This document shows positions 9,278 to 57,587 of a DNA stretch of 64,000 bases, piece after piece. How positions within the stretch are numbered: the first letter of the stretch is position 1; each line of letters starts with the position of its first letter. A program made the position numbers and the translations under genes. A model generated the notes under the pieces. It searched no databases, had not been told where the DNA came from, and saw only the letters and a program-made list of their open reading frames with translations. Origin of the DNA: a virus (Duplodnaviria; Heunggongvirae; Uroviricota; Caudoviricetes); IMG/VR virus record IMGVR_UViG_3300034105_002625, positions 25,437-89,436 of that record. The stretch is one strand, 5' to 3'.

Positions 9278-9282
9278 CAAAT

Positions 9283-9355: not shown

Positions 9356-9360
9356 CAATT

Positions 9361-9495: not shown

Positions 9496-9566
9496 GCAGG
9501 TCACAGACAAGGTGTCGGTACGGTCTCCAAAACTGCTACGGGTAAGTTCGATTCTTACGGTCTGCG
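9496..9566 (+). tRNA. tRNA-Trp (anticodon CCA)
   Basis: acceptor GCAGGTC/GGTCTGC; anticodon stem CGGT/ACTG (+1 mismatch) with loop CTCCAAA; T-arm GTAAG-TTCGATT-CTTAC. Confidence 0.5.
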
Positions 9567-9598
9567 CAAAATAAATTGTTTCATTTAAAATTAAAATC

Positions 9599-28592: not shown

Positions 28593-28790
28593 ATGCAAAA
28601 AGCATTAGACCATTTAGAGAAGCATAAAGTCTTTATTGAGACTTTAGGAACAGATATGATACCTTTATCGGAAGCTTACAAGGCAGTGGAGTTATCAATC
28701 GATGAACAATTACAGGACACTTTATCTTTACTACAGGAACAACTCGGAGGATTGACAGAAGAACTAGAAATACCAGAAGAAAATGATTAA
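28593..28790 (+). CDS. hypothetical acidic protein
   Basis: 65 aa ORF. Confidence 0.25.
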   Translation: MQKALDHLEKHKVFIETLGTDMIPLSEAYKAVELSIDEQLQDTLSLLQEQLGGLTEELEIPEEND

Positions 28791-39682: not shown

Positions 39683-39973
39683 ATGACAAAGAACAGTGAT
39701 GTAAAACCTTTAGTAAAAGAGAAGGTTGTAAACAAAATGGTCGACCATCCTCAACACTACGGAGGTAAGGGAAACAAATACGAAGCCATAAAAGTAATTG
39801 AAGCATGGGACTTAGGTTTCTGTTTAGGAAATACTGTGAAGTATATCTCCAGAGCAGGAAAGAAAGATAACATAGTTCAAGAATTAGAAAAAGCTCTTTG
39901 GTATTTAAAAAGAGAAATCAAAACACTAAAGAAAAATGGCCAAGAAAATACTCAAGCAGGTAAGTCTAATTAA
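39683..39973 (+). CDS. DUF3310-family phage protein
   Basis: 96 aa; HPQHYGG…IEAWDLGFCLGNTVKYISRAGKK matches the DUF3310 signature. Confidence 0.5.
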   Translation: MTKNSDVKPLVKEKVVNKMVDHPQHYGGKGNKYEAIKVIEAWDLGFCLGNTVKYISRAGKKDNIVQELEKALWYLKREIKTLKKNGQENTQAGKSN

Positions 39974-40877
39974 GGACTTCTGCAATCCAGTTATAGATTA
40001 TAACATCAGCAAATCAATATCGTATAGTCAAACTCTAGCATACAATACTTGTCCGCACCAATGGGCATTAAAATATGTTAAAGGACTGCAGGAGTATAAG
40101 CCCTCCATTCATACAGTCTTTGGAACAGCCTTACACGAAGTTGTACAGGAATGGCTAACAGAACTCTATGAAGGGACTGTAAAGAAAGCAACTGAGATGG
40201 ATCTTGGAGCACTTCTACATGAAAAGCTCTTTAGTATTTATGCTCAAGAAAAAGATAAGTACGGAAAACATTTCTCTACCTCTGAGCAGTTATCTGAGTT
40301 TCATAATGATGGAGTTGAAATATTGAATTACGTACGTAAGAAACGCTCTATTTACTTCGGTACCAAGTATTATAAGTTGGTAGGAGTAGAGATTCCTTTG
40401 ATACATCAAATAGCTGAGAATATTTTCTTCAAAGGATTTATTGATATTGTTCTCTATGATGAGCAGGATGACAGGTATATCATTTTAGATATCAAAACAT
40501 CAACCTCAGGATGGAATGATTATGCAAAGAAGGATGATAAAAAGCTAGCACAATTACTTCTCTATAAAGAATTCCTAGCAAGACAATTTGATATAGATGT
40601 TGATAAGGTAGATGTAAAGTACTTCATCGTAAAGAGAAAAGTACCTGCCGATCCAGAATATCCAGCCATGGGTAGAAGAGTTCAAGAGTTTGTACCACCT
40701 TCAGGAAAAATTAAAAGAGGACAAGCAACCACAGCTCTTACAAAATTTATTGACGATGCTTTCGATTCACATGGAAAGTATATTGATAAGGAATATGATA
40801 AGAAGCCATCCAAGTCCAATTGTATGTTCTGTGATTTTAAAGGTACAGAGCATTGCCATGCAGGTGTTTTGATATAA
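39936..40877 (+). CDS. PD-(D/E)XK nuclease, Cas4/RecB-like with C-terminal Cys cluster
   Basis: 313 aa; GFIDIVLYDE…ILDIKTS (D…D/E-x-K core); C-terminal CMFCDFKGTEHCH; N-terminal Cys. Confidence 0.6.
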   Translation: MAKKILKQVSLIKDFCNPVIDYNISKSISYSQTLAYNTCPHQWALKYVKGLQEYKPSIHTVFGTALHEVVQEWLTELYEGTVKKATEMDLGALLHEKLFSIYAQEKDKYGKHFSTSEQLSEFHNDGVEILNYVRKKRSIYFGTKYYKLVGVEIPLIHQIAENIFFKGFIDIVLYDEQDDRYIILDIKTSTSGWNDYAKKDDKKLAQLLLYKEFLARQFDIDVDKVDVKYFIVKRKVPADPEYPAMGRRVQEFVPPSGKIKRGQATTALTKFIDDAFDSHGKYIDKEYDKKPSKSNCMFCDFKGTEHCHAGVLI

Positions 40878-40912: not shown

Positions 40913-41095
40913 ATGAACACAAAAAAATTAACATCGGTTAAGGTAGAAGAGGATCTTCTACAAGAATTTAAAGAGCAATGCGTAAGAGATAAATTTTCTT
41001 TACAGAAGCTTGTAGACAGAGCAATTTTTCTTTATATTACAGAAGAGAGCTTTAAACAAAAATTACGCACACAAACAGATATTAAATTAAAATAG
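40913..41095 (+). CDS. small ribbon-helix-helix-like protein
   Basis: 60 aa ORF. Confidence 0.25.
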   Translation: MNTKKLTSVKVEEDLLQEFKEQCVRDKFSLQKLVDRAIFLYITEESFKQKLRTQTDIKLK

Positions 41096-41099: not shown

Positions 41100-42542
41100 A
41101 TGAAAGAAAAATTTCGTTATGTTAAGAAAGAAGATCGTAAAAAGATACTTCTGTTATGCGATGATATTAGGATGCATTCCGGTATCGCAACGATGGCTAG
41201 AGAGATTGTTGTAGGAACATCTCATCACTTTAACTGGATCAATCTAGGAGCTGCAATTAACCACCCCGAAGCAGGAAAAGGATTTGACATCTCAGGAGAG
41301 GTTAATAGGTTAACAGGGCTAGAAGATTCAGATGTAAAGGTATTGCCTAACAATGGTTATGGAGATGCTATGCAAATTAGAGCTTTAATTGCACAAGAAA
41401 AGCCAGATGCTATTTTTATCTTTACAGATCCAAGGTACTGGGTATGGTTATTTGAAATAGAAAGAGAGATTAGAAATGAAATTCCTTTGATGTACTTAAA
41501 CATTTGGGATGACTATCCAGCTCCTCTTTATAACAAACCGTACTACGAGTCATGTGATTTGTTAATGGCAATCTCAAAACAAACTAAAAATATTAATGAA
41601 ATAGTTTTAGGAGAAGCAGTTGAGAATAAGATTTTAAAATATGTTCCTCATGGAATAAATGAAGAGCACTTCTTTCCAATGACCTCAGTAGATCAACTTG
41701 AGACTTTAGGTCAATTTAAAAAAGACTTATTTCAAGGAAAGGATATCGAATTCGTAGCATTCTTCAATTCAAGAAACATCAGAAGAAAATCTCCAGGAGA
41801 TGTAATTCTATCTTATAGAATGTTCTGTGATTTAATCGGAGAAGAGAAAGCTAAGAAATGTGCTTTAGTAATGCACACACAGGCTGTAGATGAAAACGGT
41901 ACAGACCTTTATGCAGTAAGAGAAGCAATTTGTGATGAGAGTTATGTAAATGTATTCTTCTCACAAGAGAGATTAGATACTCCACAAATTAATTTACTTT
42001 ATAACATAGCTGATGTAGGATTGCTTATCACTTCAAATGAAGGATGGGGATTATCTCTAACTGAGACTATGATGGCAGGTAAAATGATCATAGCCAACGT
42101 AACAGGCGGTATGCAAGATCAAATGAGATTTACAGATGAGAATGGTGAGTGGATTAACTTCACTCCTGACTTCCCTTCTAACCATAGAGGTACTTATAAA
42201 GAGCATGGAGAGTGGGCAGTGCCTGTCTATCCTTCAAACATCTCAATGGTAGGTTCAGTTCCAACTCCATACATCTTCGATGATAGGTGTGCACCAGAAG
42301 ACGTAGCTAAAGCTTTAGAAGAGGTTTACAACATGGGGAAAGAAGAGAGAGATAGAAGAGGATTATTAGCTAGAGAATGGGTAACATCAGATGAATCAGG
42401 AATGTCAGCACGTCAAATGTGTACAAACGTTATTGATGCAATGGATGAGACATTTGAAAAGTTTACTCCAAGATCTAGATTTGACCTATATAAAGTAACA
42501 GACAGACCAAAAAAATATATCACACATAAATTAATATACTAG
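41100..42542 (+). CDS. glycosyltransferase, GT4-like (GT-B fold)
   Basis: 480 aa; NEGWGLSLTETMMAGKMIIA resembles the E-x-FG…EAMAxGxPVI GT4 donor-binding motif. Confidence 0.55.
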   Translation: MKEKFRYVKKEDRKKILLLCDDIRMHSGIATMAREIVVGTSHHFNWINLGAAINHPEAGKGFDISGEVNRLTGLEDSDVKVLPNNGYGDAMQIRALIAQEKPDAIFIFTDPRYWVWLFEIEREIRNEIPLMYLNIWDDYPAPLYNKPYYESCDLLMAISKQTKNINEIVLGEAVENKILKYVPHGINEEHFFPMTSVDQLETLGQFKKDLFQGKDIEFVAFFNSRNIRRKSPGDVILSYRMFCDLIGEEKAKKCALVMHTQAVDENGTDLYAVREAICDESYVNVFFSQERLDTPQINLLYNIADVGLLITSNEGWGLSLTETMMAGKMIIANVTGGMQDQMRFTDENGEWINFTPDFPSNHRGTYKEHGEWAVPVYPSNISMVGSVPTPYIFDDRCAPEDVAKALEEVYNMGKEERDRRGLLAREWVTSDESGMSARQMCTNVIDAMDETFEKFTPRSRFDLYKVTDRPKKYITHKLIY

Positions 42543-42544
42543 TT

Positions 42545-43831
42545 ATGAGTAAACCTACATTAGTAGTAAGCTGTCCAGTAGACACTTACTCAGGATATGG
42601 AGCAAGAGCAAGAGACTTTGTACAATCAATTATCGATACAGATAAGTACGAAGTAAAGATCCTATCACAAAGATGGGGAGGTACTAGATTTGGATATCTT
42701 AAAGATCATAAGAATGAATCTTTAGCCTCTAGAATTATACCACAACTAACACAACAGCCAGACATCTGGATTCAAATTACAGTACCGAATGAATTTCAAA
42801 AGGTTGGTAAATACAATATTGGACTAACAGCAGGAATTGAAACTACAATCTGTGATCCTTCCTGGATTGAAGGATGTAACAGAATGGACTTAGTATTAGT
42901 ATCAGCACAACATGCTAAGAAAGTATTTGAAGATAGTAAATTCAATATGCAAGATTCAAATACAGGACAAGTAACAGGACAGTTAGCACTTAGTACAAAG
43001 GTAGAAGTTCTATTTGAAGGAGCTGATATAGAGAAGTATGCACCATTGTCATGGCCAGTCACATTAGATCTTTCAACTATACCGGAAATGTTCTGCTTCC
43101 TAACAGTAGGTCACTGGCTTCAGGGGTCTCTTGGAGAGGATAGAAAGAATATTGGATACACTATTAAAGCATTCTTAGAAACATTTAAGAATAAAAAAGA
43201 TCAACCGGCACTTATTTTAAAAGTACAAGCAGGAGCAGGAACCTCTATCATGGATAGGGAAGCAGTGTTGGATAAAATTGATGCAATCAGAAAGACAGTA
43301 AAGGGAAAGTTACCAAACATTTACGTACTACATGGAGAAATGTCTGATGCTGAAGTAAATGAACTATACAACCACGGTAAGGTAAAGGCGATGATCTCTT
43401 TAACAAAAGGAGAAGGATTTGGAAGACCTCTACTAGAATTTAGTTTAATAAACAAACCAATCATAGCTTCAGGATGGTCAGGGCATATTGACTTCCTTGA
43501 TAATCGATATACAAAACAAATAGGAGGAACTCTTACAAACGTACATCCATCAGCAGCTGTAGACAAAATGATCTTACAAGAAAGCCAGTGGTTTACACCA
43601 GACGATGCTCTTGTAGGAAAAGCTCTTAAGGATGTATTTGAGGATTATAAACCATATAAGGAATTAGCCAAAAGACAGGGGTATAAGAGTAGAACTGAGT
43701 TCTCGTATGATAAGATGAGAGAGACGCTAGATACTCTTCTAACACAGTACATTCCTGAATTCCCTAAGCAAGTACAGTTAAAGTTACCTCAACTTAAGAA
43801 AATAGAACTACCAAAATTAACTAAAATATAA
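42545..43831 (+). CDS. glycosyltransferase, GT4-like (GT-B fold)
   Basis: 428 aa; GEGFGRPLLEFSLINKPIIASGW matches GT4 motif. Confidence 0.6.
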   Translation: MSKPTLVVSCPVDTYSGYGARARDFVQSIIDTDKYEVKILSQRWGGTRFGYLKDHKNESLASRIIPQLTQQPDIWIQITVPNEFQKVGKYNIGLTAGIETTICDPSWIEGCNRMDLVLVSAQHAKKVFEDSKFNMQDSNTGQVTGQLALSTKVEVLFEGADIEKYAPLSWPVTLDLSTIPEMFCFLTVGHWLQGSLGEDRKNIGYTIKAFLETFKNKKDQPALILKVQAGAGTSIMDREAVLDKIDAIRKTVKGKLPNIYVLHGEMSDAEVNELYNHGKVKAMISLTKGEGFGRPLLEFSLINKPIIASGWSGHIDFLDNRYTKQIGGTLTNVHPSAAVDKMILQESQWFTPDDALVGKALKDVFEDYKPYKELAKRQGYKSRTEFSYDKMRETLDTLLTQYIPEFPKQVQLKLPQLKKIELPKLTKI

Positions 43832-44289
43832 TGGAAGAAAAAATGTCAATCTGTCCACATTGTGGAGGAAATGCTTGCTATGAACAAGCAGTAACAGAAG
43901 AAGTAACAACAAGCTTTTGCTTTGGATGCGGGTATTCAACTTCAACTCTAATGGTTGAAGGAGGAGATTTAGTAAACAAAACACTAGAAGCATCACCAGA
44001 ACTTTATAAAGATCTTATGTTTGTAAGTGAAGATAAGAAAGTATGGTTCCCTTCTACAGTTACTCTTCCAAATAAAGGAATGGTATTCTTAGACGGAACA
44101 GCAAAAGAGAATTGGAGATGGGCAGCAGTAACCTCAGTAGAGATTCTAGAAGAAGAGAAAGCTAAATTTCCAAAAGGTCAGACAACTAAAATGGATATGA
44201 AAAATATCAAACATTTTGAGAAAGAAGATTTTATGGAAGCATTAGATGCTATCAAATTCTTTGATGTAGAAGTTGCTGAATCAGAATAA
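43831..44289 (+). CDS. zinc-ribbon protein
   Basis: 152 aa; CPHCGG…CFGCGYS. Confidence 0.3.
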   Translation: MEEKMSICPHCGGNACYEQAVTEEVTTSFCFGCGYSTSTLMVEGGDLVNKTLEASPELYKDLMFVSEDKKVWFPSTVTLPNKGMVFLDGTAKENWRWAAVTSVEILEEEKAKFPKGQTTKMDMKNIKHFEKEDFMEALDAIKFFDVEVAESE

Positions 44290-44291
44290 AT

Positions 44292-44308
44292 TTCTTATCT
44301 TAATAGGA
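44292..44308 (+). promoter_or_regulatory. promoter box TTTCTTATCTTAATAGG abutting ATG (leaderless candidate)
   Basis: box ends at ATG 44308. Confidence 0.35.
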
Positions 44309-44925
44309 TGAAAATAAGTTATGCAATAACAGTTTGTAATGAGTTGGAGGAGATTAAACGCTTAGTGACTTTCCTCCTTCTTACTAAACGTAAAGAAGAC
44401 GAAGTAGTTATTTTATTTGATGAGAAGAACGGAACAGATGAAGTATTTGATTACATAGAGTCTCAAGTTTATCACTGTGAAGTATTCTGTGAAAAGTTTG
44501 AAGGACACTTTGCTGATTGGAAAAATGAACTTACATCACACTGTACAGGAAAGTACATCTTTCAAATAGATGCAGACGAACTTCCAACTGAAGACCTTAT
44601 TGTAAACCTTCCGTACATCTTAGAAGTTAATCAAGATGTAGATGTATTTCTTGTACCAAGAATTAATACAGTAGAAGGACTAACACTTCAACATATTCAG
44701 AAATGGGGATGGAATGTAAATGATAAAGGTTGGGTAAACTTCCCAGACTACCAATGGAGAATTTATAGAAATGATCCTAGTATAAAATGGAAGAACAGAG
44801 TACACGAAGTACTAGAAGGATTTAAAACATCCACACTACTTCCAGCAGAGGAGATGTATTGCCTATATCATCCAAAGACAATCGACAGACAAGAGAAACA
44901 GAATAATTATTACGATACATTATAA
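44308..44925 (+). CDS. glycosyltransferase family 2-like
   Basis: 205 aa; N-terminal ISYAITVCNE… typical GT2 Rossmann start; DxD-like IDADE. Confidence 0.5.
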   Translation: MKISYAITVCNELEEIKRLVTFLLLTKRKEDEVVILFDEKNGTDEVFDYIESQVYHCEVFCEKFEGHFADWKNELTSHCTGKYIFQIDADELPTEDLIVNLPYILEVNQDVDVFLVPRINTVEGLTLQHIQKWGWNVNDKGWVNFPDYQWRIYRNDPSIKWKNRVHEVLEGFKTSTLLPAEEMYCLYHPKTIDRQEKQNNYYDTL

Positions 44926-44932
44926 ATTAGTT

Positions 44933-46243
44933 ATGGATAGTATTTTAAATTTAGTACAAGAGTACATTACAAAGAAGGATAGCGAGAAGAAATGGGTAGC
45001 AGGAGAAGACTTAGTTCAATATGCTGGACCTTACTTCGATGGTCAAGAAGCTCAAGCGGTTGTTAGGACTATGCTTGAAGGATGGTTAGTTCTAGGAAAA
45101 GAAGGAGCAATGTTTGAAAGACGTTTCCCTAAAAAATTAGGGCAGAAGACTGGAGTCATTGTTAATAGCGGTTCAAGTGCTAATTTACTAATGATGTTAG
45201 CCTTAACATCTAAGAGAGGAATGAACTTACCAAAAGGTACAAAAGTAATTACTCCAATAGCAGGATTCCCTGCAACACTTAGTCCTACTATTCAAGTAGG
45301 CTTTACACCAATCTTTGTTGATATTGAATTAGAATCTCTTAATCTAGACTTAGATCAAGTAGAGCAAGCATGCATTGATCATCCGGATGCAAAGATAATT
45401 ACATTTGCTCACGTATTAGGTAATCCACCTAACATGGATCGATTAATGGAAATTGTAAACAAATATAATTTAATTCTATTAGAAGACTGTTGTGATGCTT
45501 TAGGAACGACATACGATGGTAAGATGTTAGGATCATTTGGTAAAATGTCTTCATGCTCATTCTATCCAGCACATCACATTACAATGGGTGAAGGAGGATT
45601 TGTAGCTTGTGGAGATGCTCATACAGAAAAGATACTAAGAAGTTTTAGAGACTGGGGTAGAGGGTGTTTCTGTCAAGGTAAAGCAAATGCTTTAGAATGT
45701 GGTTCATGTGGTATTAGATTTAGTAATTGGTTACCAAGTCTTCCTAATGAGATCTTTGATCACAAATATACTTATGAAGAGATTGGATACAATTTAAAAC
45801 CTACAGAGTTACAAGCAGCAATGGGTAATGTTCAGTTAGGTAAGTTAGAAGAGATTGGAGTACTGAGAAGAAGAAATCATAAAGCAATTGTTGACATCTT
45901 TAAGAAGTATGAAGATAAATTTATCCTTCCTAAAGCTACAGATAAATCAGATCCAGATTGGTTTGCAGTAGCATTAACATTAAGAGACGGAGTAGGATTT
46001 ACAAGATCTGAATTCTGTCAATACTTAGAAGCAAATAAGATTCAAACAAGACCTTACTTTGCAGGTAACATTATGTTACAGCCAGGCTATTCACATTTAA
46101 TTGATTCAAAAGAAGTTATTGAGAAATATCCAGTATCAAGAAAAGTAACAACAGATACTTTCTTCTTAGGATGCTCACCAATCATTACATTGGAACAAAT
46201 AGAATACATTGGAACAATTGTAGATAAATTCTTCAGTAAATAG
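44933..46243 (+). CDS. NDP-4-keto-6-deoxyhexose 3-dehydrase (E1 / DdhC / ColD-type, PMP-dependent DegT family enzyme with active-site His replacing Lys and [2Fe-2S] Cys cluster)
   Basis: 436 aa; DegT/aminotransferase fold; SFYPAHHITMGEGG (His where aminotransferases have the PLP Lys); Cys cluster CFCQGKANALECGSCG. Confidence 0.7.
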   Translation: MDSILNLVQEYITKKDSEKKWVAGEDLVQYAGPYFDGQEAQAVVRTMLEGWLVLGKEGAMFERRFPKKLGQKTGVIVNSGSSANLLMMLALTSKRGMNLPKGTKVITPIAGFPATLSPTIQVGFTPIFVDIELESLNLDLDQVEQACIDHPDAKIITFAHVLGNPPNMDRLMEIVNKYNLILLEDCCDALGTTYDGKMLGSFGKMSSCSFYPAHHITMGEGGFVACGDAHTEKILRSFRDWGRGCFCQGKANALECGSCGIRFSNWLPSLPNEIFDHKYTYEEIGYNLKPTELQAAMGNVQLGKLEEIGVLRRRNHKAIVDIFKKYEDKFILPKATDKSDPDWFAVALTLRDGVGFTRSEFCQYLEANKIQTRPYFAGNIMLQPGYSHLIDSKEVIEKYPVSRKVTTDTFFLGCSPIITLEQIEYIGTIVDKFFSK

Positions 46244-46244
46244 T

Positions 46245-47090
46245 ATGAAAAAATTTGTAATAAGTACACATGGGTTTGATATGGGAATAGGAGGCTTAAA
46301 GGTTTTACATAAACTTTGTCACCTTCTAAATGAAAATGGATACGACGCATATCTAATACCAGTAAATTTTAATGAACCATTCGGCATGTATGAGGGGTAT
46401 AATACCAAAATGATTACACAAGACATACTAGATAATCTGGAAGAGGCCATAGTAGTGTACCCTGAAAGCTGGAACGGTAACTACCTCAATGCACCAAACG
46501 TAGTTAGGTGGATGATAGGACCTCCTACCAAGGATGTTGCTGCTACATGGTCTAGCAAGGACCTATGGTTTTGGTATATTCCTTTTTATAAGTCTTCTGA
46601 GTTTACTAAGCATTTAGAAAATCAACTGTATATAGGAGAGCAGCATAGGGATATCTTTTTTAATAGAAACTTAGAAAGGACTATTACTAGTTGGACTTTA
46701 AGAAAAGCTCAAGGGTTAGTACAAGAAGTAAATTACAAACACCCTAAGGATAGTTTGTTTCTTCCGTATCATGCAGCAGGAGATTTAGCCTCTCTTTCTG
46801 ATATATTTAATAGATCTAAAGCATTCTACTGCTACGATACATATACCTACTTAACAATACAGAGCCTACTATGCGGTACAGAGGCCATAGTGCTTCCAAA
46901 TAGTTGGACCGAGAAAGAACATTTTCTAAAAGGATTTGCACTAAGCAAGTATGTAGCCTATGGAATAGACGATCTACCCAGAGCCAGAAGTATCCGTAAT
47001 GAATTTTTAGAAGAAGTAGAAGAGATTGAAACATTAACAATAAAACAGTTACATGAATTTACAGAAAAATGCTCTACCTACTTTAGCTGA
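46245..47090 (+). CDS. hypothetical protein in glycan cluster
   Basis: 281 aa ORF. Confidence 0.3.
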   Translation: MKKFVISTHGFDMGIGGLKVLHKLCHLLNENGYDAYLIPVNFNEPFGMYEGYNTKMITQDILDNLEEAIVVYPESWNGNYLNAPNVVRWMIGPPTKDVAATWSSKDLWFWYIPFYKSSEFTKHLENQLYIGEQHRDIFFNRNLERTITSWTLRKAQGLVQEVNYKHPKDSLFLPYHAAGDLASLSDIFNRSKAFYCYDTYTYLTIQSLLCGTEAIVLPNSWTEKEHFLKGFALSKYVAYGIDDLPRARSIRNEFLEEVEEIETLTIKQLHEFTEKCSTYFS

Positions 47091-48081
47091 GTTTAGCTTC
47101 TTGATCGTAACTGCAGCAAGAGATGAGAATAGACTAAGAGAAGCCTACAGGTCAATAAGGCTACAATACCCGGAAAATGAAATAGTAGTAGTATATGATA
47201 ACACTGGTGTTTTATTACTAAATAGAGAAGATATAAACCTACTGGAGATTCCAACTTCGGAAAGAGTGTATGTTAGTAGGGGATATAATATAGCATTAAA
47301 AAACTGCTCTAAGCCATATTTTGTATTTCTACATGATGATACTTTTATTGCTCCTAACTTTCTAGAAAACATATTACCCCATATAAGCGAAAGTCAGTTT
47401 TGTAACTTCACTGCAATAGAGCCTCCAGTATTTGGCAACATCGATTCAGCAACAGCACCAATTAGGGATTTTGGTAGAAGCTTAGATACGTTTGTAGTAG
47501 AGAACTTTAATAAATATACAGAAAAGTATGTACAGACCTTAGAACACAGAACAGTAGAATCTCCTTTTGGAGGATTTTTTATGGTGGGAAGTACTAAGAG
47601 TATATTAAGTATAGGAGGATTTGATGAAACCTTTCAACCCTATTTCTTTGAAGACAGTGACTTAATGGTACGGCTACACCTAGCAAACTTTAGGTTTATA
47701 CAGGTACTAGATAGTTTAGTATATCATATGGTAAGCCTAACCTCTAGAGGAACTCCGGAGAGTAGGGTAGCTGAGAGTATCACTCATAAGTTGTTTGTTA
47801 AGAAATGGAAGGTAGAATTCAATTACTTCAGACAGTATACAATGTCAGCAGGTATTCCATATAAGAAGATACCAGTCTTAATTAAACACACAAACTGTAG
47901 TGAATCATTACAAGAGTACCTATCCTTAATAAGTGAACCTAGTACAGTAGAGCTAATAGTAGACGGACTGCAAATATCTCAAGAAGATGTAGGATATATA
48001 CAATCATTACCGTATATTATACAGGATACAATACTATCAGGTAGCTACCAACTGGGAAGTATGCAACTAAATTTTAACTAA
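47053..48081 (+). CDS. putative glycosyltransferase (GT2-like)
   Basis: 342 aa; weak GT-A-like VFLHDDTF; cluster context. Confidence 0.3.
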   Translation: MNLQKNALPTLAEFSFLIVTAARDENRLREAYRSIRLQYPENEIVVVYDNTGVLLLNREDINLLEIPTSERVYVSRGYNIALKNCSKPYFVFLHDDTFIAPNFLENILPHISESQFCNFTAIEPPVFGNIDSATAPIRDFGRSLDTFVVENFNKYTEKYVQTLEHRTVESPFGGFFMVGSTKSILSIGGFDETFQPYFFEDSDLMVRLHLANFRFIQVLDSLVYHMVSLTSRGTPESRVAESITHKLFVKKWKVEFNYFRQYTMSAGIPYKKIPVLIKHTNCSESLQEYLSLISEPSTVELIVDGLQISQEDVGYIQSLPYIIQDTILSGSYQLGSMQLNFN

Positions 48082-48108
48082 ATAACATAAAAAGATAATT
48101 TTATAAAG

Positions 48109-49065
48109 ATGAAAAAAGTAGTTTACGTTACCGGTTGTTTAGGATTTATTGGATCCTACGTAACAAGGAAGTGTTTAGATAGAGGATGGTACGTTAAGGG
48201 AGTTGATAAGAAGACCTATGCAGCTAATAAAGACTTATTAAAAGAGTTTAAAGAGTATGAAAACTTTTCATTTGTAGATTGTGATATAAATGATTTGAAG
48301 TTCCTATATGACTGTGACTATATAATTAATACAGCAGCTGAGACTCATGTAGGAAACTCTATAATGGATTCGGATGTATTTGTACATTCAAATGTAAATG
48401 GAGTTCACAATCTACTAGAGTTAATAAAAAATCATAGAGGAGAGAATGCTACTAAGCCTACACTCCTTCACTTTAGTACAGACGAAGTTTATGGAGATAT
48501 CGAAGAAGGAGAGCATATCGAGACTGACATACTTAAACCATCTAATCCATACTCAGCTACTAAAGCTGCAGCAGATATGCTAATAACAGCTTGGGCAAGA
48601 ACTTACAAACTTCCTTATATTATAATAAGGCCAACAAACAATTACGGAATAGGGCAGTATGTAGAGAAGTTAATACCTAAAGCCTGTAAGTACTTACGAC
48701 TTGGTAAAAAGATTCCTCTACACAATAACGGTACTCCAATTAGAAACTGGCTCCATGCCCAGGATACAGCTGAGGCTGTAATTAGAATTATTGAATCAGG
48801 AGTGCAGAATGAAATCTATAATATTTGTGGAGGATTTGAGCAAACTAATTTGGATACTATTAAAAAAGTTCTTATATTGTACTATAAGGATTTAGGAGTA
48901 GACATAGAAGCTAACTTAGACCTAAAATGTAATAGACAAGGACAAGATGTTAGGTATGCCTTAAATGATGATAAATTAAGAGCATTAGGATGGAAACCTA
49001 CAATTGACTTTGACTTGGAATTAAAAAATGTTGTAGAATATTATAGAGAAAAATTCATATGGTAA
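48109..49065 (+). CDS. NAD-dependent NDP-sugar 4,6-dehydratase/epimerase (extended SDR)
   Basis: 318 aa; VTGCLGFIGSYV Rossmann motif; YSATK (YxxxK). Confidence 0.75.
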   Translation: MKKVVYVTGCLGFIGSYVTRKCLDRGWYVKGVDKKTYAANKDLLKEFKEYENFSFVDCDINDLKFLYDCDYIINTAAETHVGNSIMDSDVFVHSNVNGVHNLLELIKNHRGENATKPTLLHFSTDEVYGDIEEGEHIETDILKPSNPYSATKAAADMLITAWARTYKLPYIIIRPTNNYGIGQYVEKLIPKACKYLRLGKKIPLHNNGTPIRNWLHAQDTAEAVIRIIESGVQNEIYNICGGFEQTNLDTIKKVLILYYKDLGVDIEANLDLKCNRQGQDVRYALNDDKLRALGWKPTIDFDLELKNVVEYYREKFIW

Positions 49066-50813
49066 AAGTAAGTGATGTAATCGTTCAATACCTTAAAGCT
49101 AATAAGATAGAGATTGTATTTGGAATAATTGGCTCAGCTAATTCTCACATATTCAATTCGATATTAGAAGAAGGAAGTATCAAATTGGTATCGGTACATC
49201 ATGAACAAGCCGCTGTAATGGCTATGGGAGCTTATTACCGTTCAACCGGAAAGATGGCTGTTGCATTAGTAACAGCAGGAGGAGGAGCATCAAATGCTTC
49301 AACAGGAATTCTTTCCAACTGGGCTGACTCCATTCCAGGAATAACTATCTCAGGACAAGAACAATCCTACTACTTAGCTGAATATAAAGATATGAGAATG
49401 TTTGGAGTACAAGGTTATGATGCAACTAAAGCATATGAAAACTGTACTAAAATGTCTTATGTACTTACAGAAAATACCTTACATTCAATAATGCCTTTTG
49501 CATTTGCTTTAACACAAGAAGGTAGACCAGGGCCAGTATTCCTGGAAGTACCTTTCGATGTTCAAAGTAAAATGATAGAAGAAGTAGAAATAAAAGTAAC
49601 TCCAATTGTAGAAATATACCCTGAGACTTCTTCTGATACAGACTATATCCTCTCTGCACTTTCACAAGCAGAGCGACCAGTTATACTAGGAGGTCACGGC
49701 GTTAAGCTAGCTAAAGCAGAAGAATTATTTAAACAATTTGTAGGAGACTATAACATACCAACAGTATTAAGCTGGTCAGCAGTAGACTTACTTGATGATA
49801 ATGATCCTAACTATTTCGGAAGACCAGGAGTACAGGGTCAGAGAGCAGCTAACTTTATAGTACAGAACTCTGATTTACTAATTGTATTAGGAAGCAGACT
49901 ATCATTACTTCAGACAGGCTACAAAAGAGAAGACTTTGCTCCATATGCTAATATCATTCATGTTGATGTAGATGATACAGAAATTAATAAGTTCAACGGA
50001 AAGAATATAAAAGCAGATGTAGGAGAATTACTTACAAGTTTAAATTCTAAATGGAAAGCTGAGATTGAAATAGAGGAATGGATACAATACTGTAATCAAA
50101 TTAAAGAAAAGTATCCTTTAGTAATGCCTGAGCATTTAGCAGACCCTACCAATTCATATACATTTATTGATAAATTCTCACAAAAAGTATCGGACAATTA
50201 TACAATCGTTACTGATATGGGAACAGCTTTATTAAGTGGATTCTATGGATGGAGAATTAAACCTAACCAAAAGATGTTTACCTCTCTAGGATTAGGAGAG
50301 ATGGGATATGGATTAGCAGCAGCAGTTGGAGCTGGATTTGGAGAAAGACCAGTGATGTGTTTAAATTGTGATGGAGGTATGATGATGAACATACAAGAGT
50401 TACAAACAATTAAGACACATAACCTTCCAGTAAAGATTATCATATTCAACAATGACGGATACTTAATGATCAAACATACTCAGAATATGTTATTTAAAGG
50501 AGCACGTACTTGTGTTGACAAAGAGACAGGAGTAACACTTCCTGATTATAAAAAAGTAGCACATGCATTTGATTTTGAATACTTCACAGAAGATAACGTA
50601 GATGACTTCTTAGCATTTGAAGGCCAGGCTATCATGGAAGTATTTATGGATCCAAATCAAGAATTTATTCCTAAGGTAAGAGGAATGAAGCTAGAAGATA
50701 GTACAATCCAAGCAGGACTATTAGAGGAGATGTCTCCACTTCTTCCGTTAGAAGAAATAGAACAAGCAATGGTTGCAGGAATTAACCAAAGAAGTAAAAC
50801 AGTTGTAAGATGA
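49059..50813 (+). CDS. thiamine-diphosphate-dependent acetolactate-synthase-like enzyme (YerE-like two-carbon branching enzyme candidate)
   Basis: 584 aa; three-domain ALS/POX architecture; ThDP motif CDGGMMMN-x21-NNDGY. Confidence 0.75.
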   Translation: MVKVSDVIVQYLKANKIEIVFGIIGSANSHIFNSILEEGSIKLVSVHHEQAAVMAMGAYYRSTGKMAVALVTAGGGASNASTGILSNWADSIPGITISGQEQSYYLAEYKDMRMFGVQGYDATKAYENCTKMSYVLTENTLHSIMPFAFALTQEGRPGPVFLEVPFDVQSKMIEEVEIKVTPIVEIYPETSSDTDYILSALSQAERPVILGGHGVKLAKAEELFKQFVGDYNIPTVLSWSAVDLLDDNDPNYFGRPGVQGQRAANFIVQNSDLLIVLGSRLSLLQTGYKREDFAPYANIIHVDVDDTEINKFNGKNIKADVGELLTSLNSKWKAEIEIEEWIQYCNQIKEKYPLVMPEHLADPTNSYTFIDKFSQKVSDNYTIVTDMGTALLSGFYGWRIKPNQKMFTSLGLGEMGYGLAAAVGAGFGERPVMCLNCDGGMMMNIQELQTIKTHNLPVKIIIFNNDGYLMIKHTQNMLFKGARTCVDKETGVTLPDYKKVAHAFDFEYFTEDNVDDFLAFEGQAIMEVFMDPNQEFIPKVRGMKLEDSTIQAGLLEEMSPLLPLEEIEQAMVAGINQRSKTVVR

Positions 50814-51667
50814 AAATAAAAGTAGCAATTATTGGTACAGGTAATATCGGAACAGATTTATTACTCAAAGCCTTAAAGACAGACTTCATGGATGTAGTAG
50901 CATTCGTAGGTCGTAGATTAGATTCAGATGGAATGCTAACAGCTAAGAAATACAATGTACTGATATCAGATCAAGGTATTCAATACTTTATTGACAATCC
51001 AAAGTGTTGTGATGTAGTTTACGATTGTACCTCAGCAGCAGATGCTATTGAACATGCTAAGATATTTAAAGACCAGGAAATAAAAGTAATTGACCTAACA
51101 CCAGCCAAGGTAGGAGATATGTGCGTACCAGATGTTAACTCTGAGATTATATTGACAGATGATAATGTAAATATGATTACTTGCGGAGGACAAGCTTCAA
51201 TGCCTATGCTTCATTTACTATCAAAAGAGTGCATAGGATTAGAATACATCGAAGTAGTATCACAGATTGCATCTAAGAGTGCAGGAATGGCTACAAGAAT
51301 AAACGTAGACAATTACATTCAAACAACTCAGAAAGCTATAACAAAGTTTACTGGTTGTTCAAATAACAAAGTAATACTAAACCTTAACCCTGCTGAACCC
51401 TGTGTTGATATGCAGACAACTATCTTTATCAAAGCAAAGAAAGTTAATTTTGAAAATCTAACAGAGAAGGTCTTAGAAAAAATTGAAGAGTTAAGAACAT
51501 ACATTCCATATTACGAAATGGTGCTTCCTCCAACTATGAACGATAATGGTGTAGTTGTAATGAGTATTAAAGTAAGAGGTACAGGAGACTATCTTCCAGC
51601 CTATGCTGGTAACCTGGATATTATTAACTGTGCAGCAATTAAAGTAACAGAAAGATTGGTAAAATGA
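50810..51667 (+). CDS. acetaldehyde dehydrogenase (acylating), MhpF/DmpF family
   Basis: 285 aa; MKIKVAIIGTGNIGTDLL N-terminus; catalytic Cys in ITCGGQASMP. Confidence 0.75.
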   Translation: MKIKVAIIGTGNIGTDLLLKALKTDFMDVVAFVGRRLDSDGMLTAKKYNVLISDQGIQYFIDNPKCCDVVYDCTSAADAIEHAKIFKDQEIKVIDLTPAKVGDMCVPDVNSEIILTDDNVNMITCGGQASMPMLHLLSKECIGLEYIEVVSQIASKSAGMATRINVDNYIQTTQKAITKFTGCSNNKVILNLNPAEPCVDMQTTIFIKAKKVNFENLTEKVLEKIEELRTYIPYYEMVLPPTMNDNGVVVMSIKVRGTGDYLPAYAGNLDIINCAAIKVTERLVK

Positions 51668-52662
51668 GAAAAGTAATCATAACAGATTCAAGTCTTAGAG
51701 ATGGAAATCATAGTGTTAAGCATACTATAAGTTTAGATAGTATAGCAAGGTATTGTCAATTTGCTGATAGAGCTGGCGTACCAATTGTAGAGGTAGGTCA
51801 CGGAAATGGATTAGCAGCATCCTCTTTACTTGTAGGTAAGTCTGTTAATACAGATGAAGAGATGCTAACAACTGCTAGAAAGAATCTAAAGAATTCTAAA
51901 CTAGGAATTCATATGATACCAGGACTAGCAACACTAGAACATACTAGGAGAGCAATTGATCTAGGAGTAGATGTAGTGAGAGTGGCAACACATTGTACAG
52001 AAGCAACACTATCTAAATCTCATATTGAAGCACTAGCAAAAGCAAATGTAGAAGTGTTCGGAGTATTGATGATGAGTGCTTTAATTACTCCTCTAGAATT
52101 ATTAGAGCAAGCTAAAATAATGGAAGGGTATGGAGCTAAGGCTATTATTATAATGGACTCTACAGGAACATATCTACCATTTGATGTACAGCAGAGAATT
52201 GCCCTACTGACAAGCAATCTAAATATTGCAGTAGGATTTCATGCTCATAACAACTTAGGATGTGCAGTAGCCAATTCCCTAACAGCAGTAGAATTTGGAG
52301 CAGACTATATTGACGGATGTATTAGAGGATTTGGAGCCGGAGCAGGAAATGCACCACTAGAAATACTTATACCAGTATTAGAGCAAACAGGCTTTCAAGT
52401 AGGAATAAACTTCCAGGAGACGATCAAAGAAGCTGATAATGTAATGAACTACTTAGTTCCATCAGCTCCTATCACAACTCCAATTAACATACTAACCGGA
52501 CTTAAGAAACTATTCTCAGGATTTGAAAAGCCTATCGTAAGTGCTTCTAAGTTGTATGGAATAGAATATTCATCTCTTATCTTTGAATTAGGTAATAGAA
52601 AGTTGGTAGCCGGGCAAGAAGATCTTATCTTAGAGGTAGCACAGAAGCTAAAGAAGAGATAG
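51664..52662 (+). CDS. 4-hydroxy-2-oxovalerate aldolase-like (MhpE/DmpG family, HMGL-like TIM barrel)
   Basis: 332 aa; ITDSSLRDGNHSVKH (D-x-x-LRDG…H) metal/ketoacid-binding signature; translationally coupled to the dehydrogenase. Confidence 0.75.
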   Translation: MRKVIITDSSLRDGNHSVKHTISLDSIARYCQFADRAGVPIVEVGHGNGLAASSLLVGKSVNTDEEMLTTARKNLKNSKLGIHMIPGLATLEHTRRAIDLGVDVVRVATHCTEATLSKSHIEALAKANVEVFGVLMMSALITPLELLEQAKIMEGYGAKAIIIMDSTGTYLPFDVQQRIALLTSNLNIAVGFHAHNNLGCAVANSLTAVEFGADYIDGCIRGFGAGAGNAPLEILIPVLEQTGFQVGINFQETIKEADNVMNYLVPSAPITTPINILTGLKKLFSGFEKPIVSASKLYGIEYSSLIFELGNRKLVAGQEDLILEVAQKLKKR

Positions 52663-53574
52663 ATGAACATATTAATTACAGGAGGGAATGGATTCTTAGG
52701 ATCTAATATTGTTAGAAAGCTGTTAAAGGAAGGACATAGTGTCTACTTATTTTCAAACAATACAAATAACATAGAGGACATACTTCCTCAAGTTTTATTT
52801 GACTACAGTAGTACTAATTCACTACCTATGTTTAAGAAGAAAATAGAGACATTTTCACCAGACATAGTAATACATTGTGGATGGAGTGGAGGAAATAGTT
52901 ACGCAGATACTAATAGTATGGATCAGTTTTATGAAAATGTAGATCCAAGTATCTCTCTACTACAACTACTAAGTAAGCTCAAGAAGAAGCCTAAGTTTGT
53001 AGGTTTTGGAAGTTTTGCAGAGTATGGAGAGATGTTCAATCCAGTAAGTGAAACAGTCCAAGAAGTTCCTACAAACCTATATGGACTATCAAAGTATACT
53101 TTTAAGAAGTATAGTGAAATGATATGCAACCAACACAGTATAGAATGGGTATGGATAAGGCCCTGCTACGTTTACGGACCAGGAGATGTAAGCACAAGAC
53201 TTCTTCCTAGTATAATTAAGAAGTTCTTAAGGAATGAAGCAGTAATACTTGATGAGTGTACTTCTACTGTAGATTATATTTATATAGATGATTTTGTTAA
53301 TTCAATTTATTTTCTTATATTAACAAAACATACAGGAGTGTACAACATATGCTCAGGAAAACAATACAAGATAAGAGATATAGTTGAGCAAGTTCATAAA
53401 CAAATTGAGAGTAGTAGTACTATTGAATTTAGTGCTAATCTAAAAAGAACCTCTACATACTCTTATGTATGTGGGGACAGACGAAAGATTGATGCTGTTG
53501 CAAATATTCCAACTCAGATATCTTTAAATGAAGGATTAGTTAAAACAATAACATATTATAAAGTAAGAAAATGA
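52663..53574 (+). CDS. NAD(P)-dependent sugar epimerase/reductase (extended SDR)
   Basis: 303 aa; ITGGNGFLGSNI; YGLSK (YxxxK). Confidence 0.7.
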   Translation: MNILITGGNGFLGSNIVRKLLKEGHSVYLFSNNTNNIEDILPQVLFDYSSTNSLPMFKKKIETFSPDIVIHCGWSGGNSYADTNSMDQFYENVDPSISLLQLLSKLKKKPKFVGFGSFAEYGEMFNPVSETVQEVPTNLYGLSKYTFKKYSEMICNQHSIEWVWIRPCYVYGPGDVSTRLLPSIIKKFLRNEAVILDECTSTVDYIYIDDFVNSIYFLILTKHTGVYNICSGKQYKIRDIVEQVHKQIESSSTIEFSANLKRTSTYSYVCGDRRKIDAVANIPTQISLNEGLVKTITYYKVRK

Positions 53575-54212
53575 AAAACGAAGTTGTAGTAAAAGAAGGA
53601 GGCTGGATTTGGCCTAAGAAGGATGAGAGAAGTTGGCAAGGTCAAATAAAACAAAAGGAACTAGCTCAATACATACTTCCCTATGTAGTGAAGAATGATG
53701 TAATGATACAAGCAGGTGGTAATTGTGGATTCATTCTAAGTACCTTTGTTCCCTACTTTAACAACATCTATACATTTGAACCAGATCCAATAAACTTTTA
53801 TTGCTTGAATCAGAATGTTACAGCACCAAGTGTTATTAAGATGCAATGTTGCTTAGGAAAAGAAAGTACACCAGTAGCTGTACAACATCTACAAAGAGGT
53901 ATAGGAGAGGGAATAGACATAGGGGGAGTACATGTTAGTGGAGTAGGGTTTACTCCTACTATTGTTATCGACAAATTAAACCTACAGGCATGTGACTTAA
54001 TTCAACTAGACATAGAAGGGTATGAACTCAATGCACTACTGGGTGCAGTAGAGACTATTAAGAAATATAAACCTGTACTATGTATAGAGTTCTGTGAAAA
54101 CTGGTTAAATAGGTATGAAGCTACGTCAGATAGTGTTGAAACTCTTTTAGTTGAATTAGGATACAAACATGTAGAATCGTACCAAGCAGATAGAATTTAC
54201 ATAACACAATAG
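53571..54212 (+). CDS. putative FkbM-family methyltransferase
   Basis: 213 aa; QAGGNCGF resembles SAM-binding G-x-G-x-G of FkbM-type MTases; cluster context. Confidence 0.4.
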   Translation: MKNEVVVKEGGWIWPKKDERSWQGQIKQKELAQYILPYVVKNDVMIQAGGNCGFILSTFVPYFNNIYTFEPDPINFYCLNQNVTAPSVIKMQCCLGKESTPVAVQHLQRGIGEGIDIGGVHVSGVGFTPTIVIDKLNLQACDLIQLDIEGYELNALLGAVETIKKYKPVLCIEFCENWLNRYEATSDSVETLLVELGYKHVESYQADRIYITQ

Positions 54213-54230
54213 GTTACATATATACATACA

Positions 54231-55508
54231 ATGGAAAATTCAATTAGTTTTTGCATCAATACAGCAGTAGATGAACTACCTTATTTAAAACTACTAATGA
54301 AGTCGTTAAAAGAAAATCTTAAGTACGACCACCACGAGGTAATTGTGTTTGTTGATTCTGATAATCAAAAAACCTTCGAATGGCTGACTACTCAAAAGTT
54401 AGAGTTTAAGAATCTAAAAATACTTAAAAACATACTCCCAGTATGTTATGGCCCTATTAGGAATATAAATGAAATGTTTAAATTTGCTTCTCATGAAATA
54501 GTTTCTTACCTACAGTCTGATATGGTTGTTTCTAGAAACTATGATGAGTATCTCTTAAAGCATATTAAACCTAATACGATACTATCTAGCACTAGAATTG
54601 AACCACCACTACATGGACCAGGTCCTGAGAAGCATACTGTGAACTTTGGACTAACTCCCTCTGAGTTTGATTATGAGGGGTTTTTAAACTACTGTGACAT
54701 ATGTAGAGAAGATAAAACAACAAGTTACTATTTTGCACCATTTACTTTATATAGAGAGATTTGGAACACTATAGGAGGGCAAGACAACACCTTTAGACGG
54801 TCAAGAGATGACTCTGATATTTTAAATAGGTTTATACTTTCAGGAGTAGAGATTGTTCAAACATGGGAAGCACTGGTATACCATTTTACTTGTACTTCTA
54901 GTAGAGGACCGGGCTGGCATGAGCCAAGTAATACAAAGGCACAGGAAAAGTTACAACTCCAAGCAAGAGCAGATAAGGTAGAACTTACTAGAATATTTAG
55001 AAAGTGGGGAGAATTTAGCCATGGACATCCAACACCGTACTACTATAATATAGTCTCAGAAATTAATATAGATATAGATATAGGTAACTTAGAGTTATTT
55101 AAAAACGTTGAGATGTTTTTTATAAAAAACTACATAACTTCTAAAAAACTATATAACGAGTTTATAAATGAGAATGAACATCTATATGCTAATATACTTT
55201 ACAAGTACTCTCAAGAACAGTGGGAGGAGTACAAGTACATGTGCAACATAGAGAGATTAGAGGATAGAGTTTGTATAGGAGAACCAGAAGGAGATGTGGT
55301 AGTTTCATTTAACCTTAGTAGTATTAACCAAAATACATTTAATAATGTACTAAGTAAGTTACAACACATAATACACGAAGCAGAACCAGGTGATTATGAA
55401 TTCGAAGGATTTACTTTCTCAATAAAGAACAAAGAGAATATTATAGAGACTAAACTTAAAGTAAACAATCCTGATATAAAACCAGAACATCTATATAAGG
55501 TATACTAG
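54231..55508 (+). CDS. putative glycosyltransferase (GT2-like N-terminal domain) with C-terminal extension
   Basis: 425 aa; SFCINTAVDE… N-terminus; HEVIVFVDSD (DxD-like). Confidence 0.4.
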   Translation: MENSISFCINTAVDELPYLKLLMKSLKENLKYDHHEVIVFVDSDNQKTFEWLTTQKLEFKNLKILKNILPVCYGPIRNINEMFKFASHEIVSYLQSDMVVSRNYDEYLLKHIKPNTILSSTRIEPPLHGPGPEKHTVNFGLTPSEFDYEGFLNYCDICREDKTTSYYFAPFTLYREIWNTIGGQDNTFRRSRDDSDILNRFILSGVEIVQTWEALVYHFTCTSSRGPGWHEPSNTKAQEKLQLQARADKVELTRIFRKWGEFSHGHPTPYYYNIVSEINIDIDIGNLELFKNVEMFFIKNYITSKKLYNEFINENEHLYANILYKYSQEQWEEYKYMCNIERLEDRVCIGEPEGDVVVSFNLSSINQNTFNNVLSKLQHIIHEAEPGDYEFEGFTFSIKNKENIIETKLKVNNPDIKPEHLYKVY

Positions 55509-56933: not shown

Positions 56934-57587
56934 ATGCCACCACCAAAATTCATATCGAAAGATGATTGCTTAAGAGCAATGCAAAATACTAGAAGTAACC
57001 GAGGAGCAGCTCGGTTTCTTCGATGTAGCTTTGTACACTATAAGAAGTATGCTAGAACGTATGTTAATGATCAAGGAGTAACTCTATGGGAGGCTCATAA
57101 GAATCAATCAGGCATAGGTATTCCTAAATATCTTCCTAACAAAGGTAAGCAAGCACCTCTTAAAGAATTGATTGAAGGGAAGATATCAGTAGCTTCTTTT
57201 GAGCCGGCTAAGATCAAACAGAGATTAATCTTTGAAGGCTATTTAAAAGAGGAATGTAATCGATGTGGCTTTCATGAAGAGAGAGTAACAGATCATAAGA
57301 TACCTTTGATACTTCAATTTAGAGATAAGAACAAAGTCAACTACGAGCTTTCTAATATAGAGCTTATGTGTTACAATTGCTCTTTCCTATACTCTGTATC
57401 ACCTATCACCGATAGACAAGTAGCAGCAGCAGAGGATTCTGTAGACAGACAAGTAAGAGATTTTGATTGGGAGGTAGATGATGCAATGAAAGAGCATTTA
57501 GAATCATTAGGACTTTGGAATGAAGTACCAACAGATGGTTCACAATACATCTCAGAAAACTATAAAGGGAATGAAAAAGAAGACTAA
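56934..57587 (+). CDS. HNH-like endonuclease candidate
   Basis: 217 aa; CNRCGFHEERVTDHKIPL…CYNCS resembles an HNH/Zn-finger core. Confidence 0.35.
   Translation: MPPPKFISKDDCLRAMQNTRSNRGAARFLRCSFVHYKKYARTYVNDQGVTLWEAHKNQSGIGIPKYLPNKGKQAPLKELIEGKISVASFEPAKIKQRLIFEGYLKEECNRCGFHEERVTDHKIPLILQFRDKNKVNYELSNIELMCYNCSFLYSVSPITDRQVAAAEDSVDRQVRDFDWEVDDAMKEHLESLGLWNEVPTDGSQYISENYKGNEKED

Follow-up and report, generated by a model that had tools for sequence, protein, structure and literature searches.

A phage glycosylation locus predicted to make an erwiniose-type branched-chain deoxysugar

Which sugar would a phage make with enzymes of its own, and on what would it place it? The question is raised by a run of 14 open reading frames (ORFs) at positions 41100-55508 of a stretch of 64,000 nucleotides (hereafter the window) from a virus of the Caudoviricetes (IMG/VR record IMGVR_UViG_3300034105_002625, positions 25,437 to 89,436), a relative of Flavobacterium phage immuto (~83-85% at the nucleotide level). 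A preliminary description of this locus had read it as an island for a yersiniose-like branched 3,6-dideoxyhexose, with several glycosyltransferases (GTs). Our analysis indicates that the locus is probably a soluble, cytoplasmic phage glycosylation operon, of which the variable half would make a nucleoside diphosphate (NDP)-activated branched 3,6-dideoxyhexose of the erwiniose type and the GTs would attach the glycan. Protein families were called by Pfam, NCBIfam (with equivalog cutoffs) and PHROG profile searches, structural relatives were taken from matches in the PDB, and the locus was compared with a set of 142 viral, bacterial and archaeal loci; single loci are cited below by L numbers and coordinates are given in Table 1.

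We first consider the enzymes that would prepare the ketosugar. The E1-type 3-dehydrase, of the DegT/AAT fold, passed the RfbH equivalog NF011936 with 452.1 bits (cutoff 423) and matched the Yersinia E1 (PDB 3BCX) at 3.8e-102 with 42% identity. Its His214 is aligned with His220 of the Yersinia enzyme, where PDB entry 3BB8 has a lysine, and its Cys187, Cys245, Cys247 and Cys259 are aligned with Cys193, Cys251, Cys253 and Cys261, which we take to be the [2Fe-2S] ligands of Yersinia E1. The last cysteine spacer is of 11 residues (X11) versus 7 (X7) in the Yersinia enzyme. The histidine-for-lysine exchange and the iron-sulfur cysteine motif reported earlier were thus both found, and the protein is not an ordinary lysine-containing aminotransferase. 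It is 94-99% identical in L002, L005 and L007. The 4,6-dehydratase, formerly assigned to the NDP-hexose type in general, is present and its type could be narrowed: it scored 299 bits with the dTDP-glucose model TIGR01181 (cutoff 365) versus 71 bits with the CDP-type model TIGR02622, its PDB matches were all RmlB-like, and it exhibits GxxGxxG, TDE (124-126) and YSATK (148-152) motifs. It is RmlB-like and not of the CDP type. Its identity is 60-92% in viral loci, with only 20-37% matches in bacterial loci. The ddh (asc/rfb) pathway of Yersinia and Salmonella has in common with the window the catalytic histidine and cysteine motif of E1 and the order of 4,6-dehydration and then C-3 deoxygenation; unlike that pathway (DdhA-D and E3), the window is without the DdhA cytidylyltransferase and E3, its dehydratase is of the dTDP family and its cysteine spacer is X11. 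SpnQ, an E1 homologue, takes a TDP-sugar as its substrate and works with the general reductases of the cell; it is a precedent both for a dTDP-type sugar and for a missing dedicated E3.

The gene that shares this operon with E1 and the dehydratase, and so adjoins 4-keto-deoxysugar genes, codes for a thiamine diphosphate (ThDP)-dependent enzyme with the three ThDP-enzyme domains. It matched JanthE (PDB 8RPH) at 6.2e-150 with 503 bits and 43% identity; the next PDB match was 5AHK with 254 bits, presumably the PpYerE structure, and the top ordinary acetohydroxyacid synthase reached 230 bits. The protein stayed under every NCBIfam cutoff for acetolactate synthase (ALS), with 334 bits versus 738, so that its earlier reading as YerE-type and not ALS is well founded. 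It also has the unusual CDG ThDP-binding motif of JanthE (PMC12188165), and its three-domain fold is that of JanthE and of PpYerE, of which the structure has been solved (PMC12247030). It differs from both in that the viral enzymes form a clade of their own.

The two genes that follow, overlooked in the preliminary description, bear directly on the donor of the branch. The first encodes a DmpF-like acylating acetaldehyde dehydrogenase with its catalytic cysteine in ITCGGQA (PDB matches 7Z3S, 4JN6_B and 1NVM_B), the second a DmpG-like aldolase with LRDGNH and HAHNN motifs (PDB matches 8IH7, 4JN6 and 1NVM); both passed their equivalog cutoffs, and their nearest structures are the two chains of DmpFG-type complexes. 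The DmpF-like gene overlaps the ThDP gene and the DmpG-like gene by 4 bp each, and the three genes are in this way translationally coupled. The three genes are adjacent in ~50 of the 64 viral loci that carry the ThDP gene and in most of the bacterial and archaeal ones, over ThDP identities from 33% to 97%; DmpFG is co-inherited with the ThDP gene across ~100 loci, and the ThDP loci without it are separate subclades. Next comes an extended short-chain dehydrogenase/reductase (SDR) with GGNGFLG and YGLSK (YxxxK) motifs and no D-E pair, for which no specific NCBIfam family was matched, and then an FkbM-family methyltransferase that probably O-methylates the sugar. Pfam upheld both earlier assignments. 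In 12 viral loci the SDR gene is accompanied by those for the FkbM enzyme and the last GT2, and L002 and L005 carry a different SDR of 255 aa.

A gene set of this kind has been characterised in the erwiniose cluster of Pectobacterium atrosepticum SCRI1043, where ErwE rejects pyruvate and uses 4-hydroxy-2-oxopentanoate, alongside the reductase ErwF, the BphI-like aldolase ErwI and the BphJ-like acetaldehyde dehydrogenase ErwJ, and which adjoins genes for CDP-4-keto-3,6-dideoxyglucose (Steitz et al. 2022, PMC9306805). The likeness to the window, drawn from the published description of the cluster, covers the YerE-like ThDP enzyme, the BphI/DmpG aldolase, the BphJ/DmpF dehydrogenase, a reductase, 4-keto-3,6-dideoxyhexose genes and a glycosyltransferase nearby, while homology of the window SDR to ErwF is not demonstrable. 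Unlike the erwiniose cluster, the window is carried by a phage, has an RmlB-type instead of a CDP-glucose dehydratase and no cytidylyltransferase or E3, and adds a methyltransferase and six GTs. Because the erwiniose gene set matches and the ThDP-DmpF-DmpG adjacency recurs in viral, bacterial and archaeal loci, we infer that the branch would be a C4 unit (1,3-dihydroxybutyl), possibly O-methylated, and not the C2 unit of yersiniose; the overlooked pair points to 4-hydroxy-2-oxovalerate as donor, and the yersiniose-like product proposed earlier gives way to an erwiniose-type one.

The identities and residues of the enzymes were observed directly; the order of reactions, the donor, the nucleotide carrier and the acceptor are our inference. 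Host NDP-glucose would be converted into NDP-4-keto-6-deoxyglucose by the RmlB-like dehydratase, and E1 would strip the 3-hydroxyl, with electrons from a host reductase, to give NDP-4-keto-3,6-dideoxyglucose. In a parallel branch, the DmpF-like enzyme would form acetaldehyde from acetyl-CoA and the DmpG-like aldolase would join it with pyruvate into 4-hydroxy-2-oxovalerate, which the YerE-like enzyme would decarboxylate, transferring the C4 unit onto C-4 of the ketosugar. The SDR would reduce the ketone of the branch, and O-methylation of the product by the FkbM enzyme may follow. The six GTs would then assemble the glycan, the conserved head of the locus (two GT4 genes, the hypothetical gene hyp152 and one GT2 gene) probably laying a core shared by all on an acceptor that is likewise conserved, with the variable distal sugar coming from the cassette.

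On what the glycan is placed was approached through what the locus contains. No transmembrane segment was found among the 14 proteins, nor did Pfam give a flippase (Wzx), a polymerase (Wzy) or a priming phosphoglycosyltransferase; the glycan would therefore be assembled in the cytoplasm. For the acceptor, a structural protein of the virion is the most likely candidate, on the analogy of mycobacteriophages and giant viruses, and host envelope glycoconjugates come second. The glycan clusters of chloroviruses and Megavirinae likewise encode GTs of the virus and some nucleotide-sugar pathways, and vary between related viruses. For the glycosylation of mycobacteriophage virions (Freeman et al. 2023), the likeness lies in soluble virus-encoded GTs. 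Unlike what is reported of any virus in the literature searched, the window is predicted to make an acyl-branched deoxysugar, for which the target is a presumed one. That the glycan is placed on the host envelope (LPS, i.e. lipopolysaccharide, capsule or a lipid-linked intermediate), for example in a block of superinfection or of re-adsorption to debris, is less likely but a serious alternative, for which several observations speak: GT4 and GT2 enzymes and such sugars are usual in loci for capsules and O-antigens, descriptions of YerE-like enzymes assign them to LPS, the serotype-like variability of the locus recalls O-antigen loci, and LPS-like gene sets of cyanophages have been interpreted as envelope-modifying. 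Without flippase, polymerase, priming enzyme or membrane protein, however, the phage would have to take over lipid-linked assembly from its host in the course of a lytic cycle, whereas cytoplasmic glycosylation of virions has a precedent in the mycobacteriophages.

Several points weigh against an erwiniose-type pathway serving virion proteins. The known E1 enzymes use CDP-sugars and the dehydratase here is of the dTDP type. The closest characterised enzyme, JanthE, accepts pyruvate as well as 4-hydroxy-2-oxovalerate, so that the C4 branch is not proven and a C2 branch is possible. The pathway is read from sequence alone, with predicted activities throughout; the SDR is a candidate for the side-chain ketoreductase, in the role of YerF or ErwF, by its position only; and nothing in the sequence points to an acceptor, in a window without structural genes. 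Finally, relatives have a nucleotidyltransferase fusion, and the window cassette could be incomplete, reliant on the host or served by genes outside the 64 kb.

This last point concerns the genes that are missing. No sugar nucleotidyltransferase was found in the 64-kb window and no ORF in it has the plant-type ferredoxin motif of an E3 reductase; tblastn with the E3-like protein of L101 reached no better than E = 0.022 in the window and matched none of the viral loci. Motif, tblastn and comparison thus agree with the preliminary description, which had seen neither gene. In the bacterial loci, too, an E3 gene is seldom present within 10 kb, and its absence therefore says little. Of the canonical route to CDP-4-keto-3,6-dideoxyglucose (cytidylyltransferase, CDP-glucose 4,6-dehydratase, E1 and E3), the window has an incomplete version, only E1 and an RmlB-type dehydratase standing for the four steps. 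The cassettes of L002, L005, L007, L017, L020 and L021 contain a fusion protein of ~600-620 aa, in which a sugar-1-phosphate nucleotidyltransferase is joined to an EcbF/BcbF-type HAD phosphatase and an APH-like kinase domain. Its profile matches are to generic sugar-1-phosphate nucleotidyltransferases only, it is not in the window, and none of the relatives bearing it encodes E3.

A yersiniose-like product, for which the ThDP enzyme would add a C2 acetyl unit from pyruvate and the SDR would reduce it, DmpF and DmpG being accessory or unrelated, appears improbable. YerE chemistry is the founding example of such branching, the nearest solved relative, JanthE, takes pyruvate, and the ThDP, SDR (SDR303) and FkbM genes occur without DmpFG in L047, L048, L053 and L061. 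In vitro, JanthE takes both pyruvate and 4-hydroxy-2-oxovalerate (PMC12188165). What decides against the C2 branch is that the 4-bp overlaps and the co-inheritance tie DmpF and DmpG to the ThDP gene, that ErwE, beside such a DmpFG-type pair, rejects pyruvate, and that pyruvate is abundant, so that an aldolase pair would be purposeless in a pyruvate-only route.

Of the three targets that had been proposed, the virion and the host envelope stand and phage DNA is disfavoured; base hypermodification against restriction is very improbable as the purpose of the locus. The window contains a 7-deazaguanine set, comprising QueC, a radical-SAM QueE-like protein, FolE, DpdA (by synteny with immuto), a PurN-like formyltransferase (DpdN-like) and QueF. 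In immuto the same set goes with complete replacement of dG by formyl-preQ1, and the DNA nucleosides are dA, dC, dT and fdPreQ1 only (PMC10516641); immuto has the same head GTs and a cassette of its own, yet no glyco-nucleoside is reported there (PMC10516641), and fdPreQ1 has no hydroxyl acceptor. Phage DNA glycosylation based on hydroxymethylcytosine or hydroxymethyluracil (hmC/hmU) differs in that the window is without a pyrimidine hydroxymethylase. Its ThyA homologue (20687-21967, plus strand) passes the thymidylate synthase equivalog TIGR03284 and is a true enzyme of that kind; at 426 aa versus the normal ~265-320 aa, it is matched by ThyA models in 2-3 separate stretches and hence carries one or more insertions.

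The distribution of the pathway was then considered. The ThDP contexts on contigs of 160-248 kb are phage-like with the same core gene order, and the enzyme has dozens of metagenomic counterparts at 80-97% identity. The best match among 185,579 bacterial and archaeal species genomes is 46%, none of the matches being in Flavobacterium, and the viral ThDP genes fall into a single clade, whose sister group is the bacterial clade that contains JanthE. Because of this low bacterial identity and single viral clade, the cassette is not recent host cargo, a possibility that the preliminary description had raised. The least credible reading is that of a host-derived auxiliary metabolic gene (AMG) set, in which DmpF and DmpG would serve meta-cleavage or amino acids and the ThDP enzyme would be a branched-chain ALS, for although databases name the latter 'acetolactate synthase', DmpF and DmpG pass equivalogs of catabolic enzymes and one virome paper classes the aldolase as an amino-acid-metabolism AMG, the ThDP scores and clade above speak otherwise, GC is flat, and the genes sit among E1, the dehydratase and GTs with no hydratase, hydrolase, dioxygenase or ALS small subunit nearby.

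The cassette evidently moves between phages. E1, the dehydratase, the ThDP enzyme, DmpF and DmpG are 80-97% identical to those of L002 and L005, whereas backbone proteins there are only 28-46% identical, and the junctions of the cassette coincide with gene boundaries. Compared with L007, only 46248-48088 is swapped, L007 having 6 kb of other genes there; compared with L002 and L005, homology stops just past DmpG. Five GVMAG-labelled IMG/VR contigs (L034, L039, L043, L045 and L060) also carry ThDP (~47-50%), DmpF and DmpG, with an aminotransferase-type DegT protein replacing E1 and no RmlB-type dehydratase; these may be phages binned in error, or the genes may truly occur in giant viruses. On the 248-kb phage contig L005, a pyruvate-dehydrogenase-E1 alpha/beta-like pair (8821-9993) lies directly upstream of the YerE-like gene. 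Such a pair is a second type of ThDP system, known from the branching of antibiotic sugars. With the module present in dozens of viral contigs, the earlier qualification of the locus as highly unusual was overstated, although it is apparently undescribed in the literature searched.

The head of the locus is conserved at 46-93% amino acid identity and consists of a 60-aa ORF, GT4a, GT4b, hyp152 and a GT2. GT4a is 91% identical to its immuto counterpart and its top PDB match, a weak one, is 3OY2 (glycosyltransferase B736L); GT4b is 88% identical to immuto, and the GT2 64% to immuto and 79% to L002. The product of hyp152 has four conserved cysteines, three of them invariant and one present in >=90% of sequences; no structural relative of it was detectable, and its gene is in every case flanked by the second GT4 gene and the first GT2 gene. 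Since hyp152 has 744 metagenomic homologues, the locus is widespread. In all, six transferases were found, two GT4, one compact GT-B and three GT2: the two GT4 and the total of five or six given earlier stood, and the count of GT2 was revised to three, the sixth transferase being of the GT-B fold and not a GT2. This GT-B ORF was also considered as an E3 or a nucleotidyltransferase and was ruled out as either. The last GT2, 78% identical to L007 and 31% to the last GT of immuto, has a C-terminal extension of ~300 aa without assigned function.

Behind this head the cassettes differ. The window has the predicted erwiniose-type branched deoxysugar set and immuto has amino-sugar genes, while L144 and L145 contain, downstream of hyp152, a nonulosonic-acid pathway with NeuB, a CMP-transferase, a PseB/LegB-like dehydratase, an aminotransferase and an acetyltransferase; the L143 cassette is given in Table 1. 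Bacterial O-antigen and flagellin-glycosylation islands likewise exchange sugar cassettes (branched deoxysugar, nonulosonic acid, amino sugars) between constant flanks; unlike them, the phage locus contains no Wzx, Wzy, priming transferase or membrane protein. We put forward, as a conjecture that falls somewhat short of probable, that immuto-like aquatic phages carry a serotype-like locus, in which the head would build a core on a virion protein and cassettes exchanged laterally among distantly related phages would complete a variable sugar coat under diversifying selection; the window would then hold the first viral pathway for an acyl-branched deoxysugar, with RmlB-type entry and no dedicated E3.

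The 14 ORFs, with the coordinates given in the preliminary description, are tightly packed on the plus strand. The widest intergenic gap is of 27 bp, genes overlap by 1, 38, 7, 4 and 4 bp and by another 4 bp at the SDR/methyltransferase junction, and the run looks like one translationally coupled unit. A compositional island was ruled out, GC being flat at ~0.34 over the whole window; in place of the island described earlier, comparison with immuto delimits a variable part, 44933-55506, nucleotide homology stopping at 44933 and restarting at 55506. The small ORF directly upstream gave no family match in the profile search and is possibly a regulator of the locus; immuto, L143, L144 and L145 have an ORF of 60-62 aa at the corresponding place. 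A scan for sigma-70-type promoters gave 64 sites versus 76.5 in shuffles, fewer than chance, and the Bacteroidota-type -33/-7 pattern had 9 matches versus 4.4 expected, none of them upstream of the locus. Elsewhere in the window are a phage GroEL (34758-36398, plus strand), with GroES upstream by synteny with immuto, and a GH19 chitinase-like endolysin (37924-38535). In L143, the product of a phage-contig gene (1-402) combines a cohesin domain with a Por_Secre_tail domain for type IX secretion sorting, which suggests targeting to the type IX secretion system of Bacteroidota.

Table 1 Features of the glycosylation locus, its surroundings and related loci. Coordinates are those of the window unless a locus is named.
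Feature	Coordinates	Strand	Evidence
PD-(D/E)XK nuclease gene, left neighbour	39936-40877
60-aa ORF directly upstream of the locus	40913-41095	+	ribbon-helix-helix-like by eye
GT4a, GT-B family-4 glycosyltransferase, 480 aa, conserved head	41100-42542	+	Pfam Glycos_transf_1 3.5e-7; PHROG 2170
GT4b, second GT4 glycosyltransferase, 428 aa, conserved head	42545-43831	+	PHROG 2170; Pfam matches under gathering score
hyp152, conserved acidic protein, four-Cys zinc-ribbon N-terminus, 152 aa	43831-44289	+
GT2, 205 aa, final gene of conserved head	44308-44925	+	Pfam Glycos_transf_2 8.8e-9
E1-type pyridoxamine phosphate (PMP)/[2Fe-2S] NDP-4-keto-6-deoxyglucose 3-dehydrase	44933-46243	+	RfbH equivalog; PDB 3BCX
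Compact GT-B glycosyltransferase, 281 aa, swappable middle module	46245-47090	+	no Pfam
GT2, 342 aa, swappable middle module	47053-48081	+	Pfam Glycos_transf_2 2.3e-10
NDP-glucose 4,6-dehydratase, RmlB type	48109-49065	+	TIGR01181; PDB 2HUN 1.1e-67
YerE-like ThDP-dependent carboligase (predicted sugar C-branching)	49059-50813	+	PDB 8RPH; PF02776, PF00205, PF02775
Acylating acetaldehyde dehydrogenase, DmpF/BphJ/ErwJ type	50810-51667	+	TIGR03215 321.6 bits (cutoff 282)
4-Hydroxy-2-oxovalerate aldolase, DmpG/BphI/ErwI type	51664-52662	+	TIGR03217 342 bits (cutoff 286)
Extended SDR	52663-53574	+	Pfam Epimerase 2.5e-37
FkbM-family methyltransferase	53571-54212	+	Pfam Methyltransf_21 8.2e-12; TIGR01444 above cutoff; PHROG 8156
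GT2, 425 aa, closes variable region	54231-55508	+	Pfam Glycos_transf_2 5e-7, residues 13-116 only
HNH gene, right neighbour	56934-57587
7-Deazaguanine DNA-modification set	4133-4996, 24773-25558, 27095-27805, 28783-29577, 29730-30257, 30786-31712	+
Nucleotidyltransferase fusion in relatives	L002 2729-4594; L005 706-2580; L007 7182-8987
L143 cassette: E1, dehydratase, HpcH/HpaI aldolase, DHQ-synthase-like gene	L143 11104-20447

So far as is known, acyl-branched deoxysugars (such as yersiniose, erwiniose and caryophyllose) occur only in the LPS of bacteria and in antibiotics. No report of a pathway for such a sugar in a virus was found in the literature searched, nor anything relevant on the glycan genes of immuto; the chemistry is already known from bacteria and glycosylation is already known from viruses, and it is the phage-borne branched-sugar pathway that appears to be new. 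The phage-borne version would carry acyl-branched deoxysugars over to viruses. It would also correct a likely misannotation, viral proteins of this type named 'acetolactate synthase', 'acetaldehyde dehydrogenase' and '4-hydroxy-2-oxovalerate aldolase' being here parts of a sugar pathway; the viral ThDP, DmpF and DmpG genes would otherwise be counted as AMGs of amino-acid or aromatic catabolism, a misreading that the aldolase of the virome study exemplifies. The compact enzyme set may be of biocatalytic interest, since YerE-like carboligases yield chiral tertiary alcohols. With a cultured relative at hand in immuto (host Flavobacterium sp. LMO8), the purpose of phage glycan diversity and the selection acting on it become directly testable.

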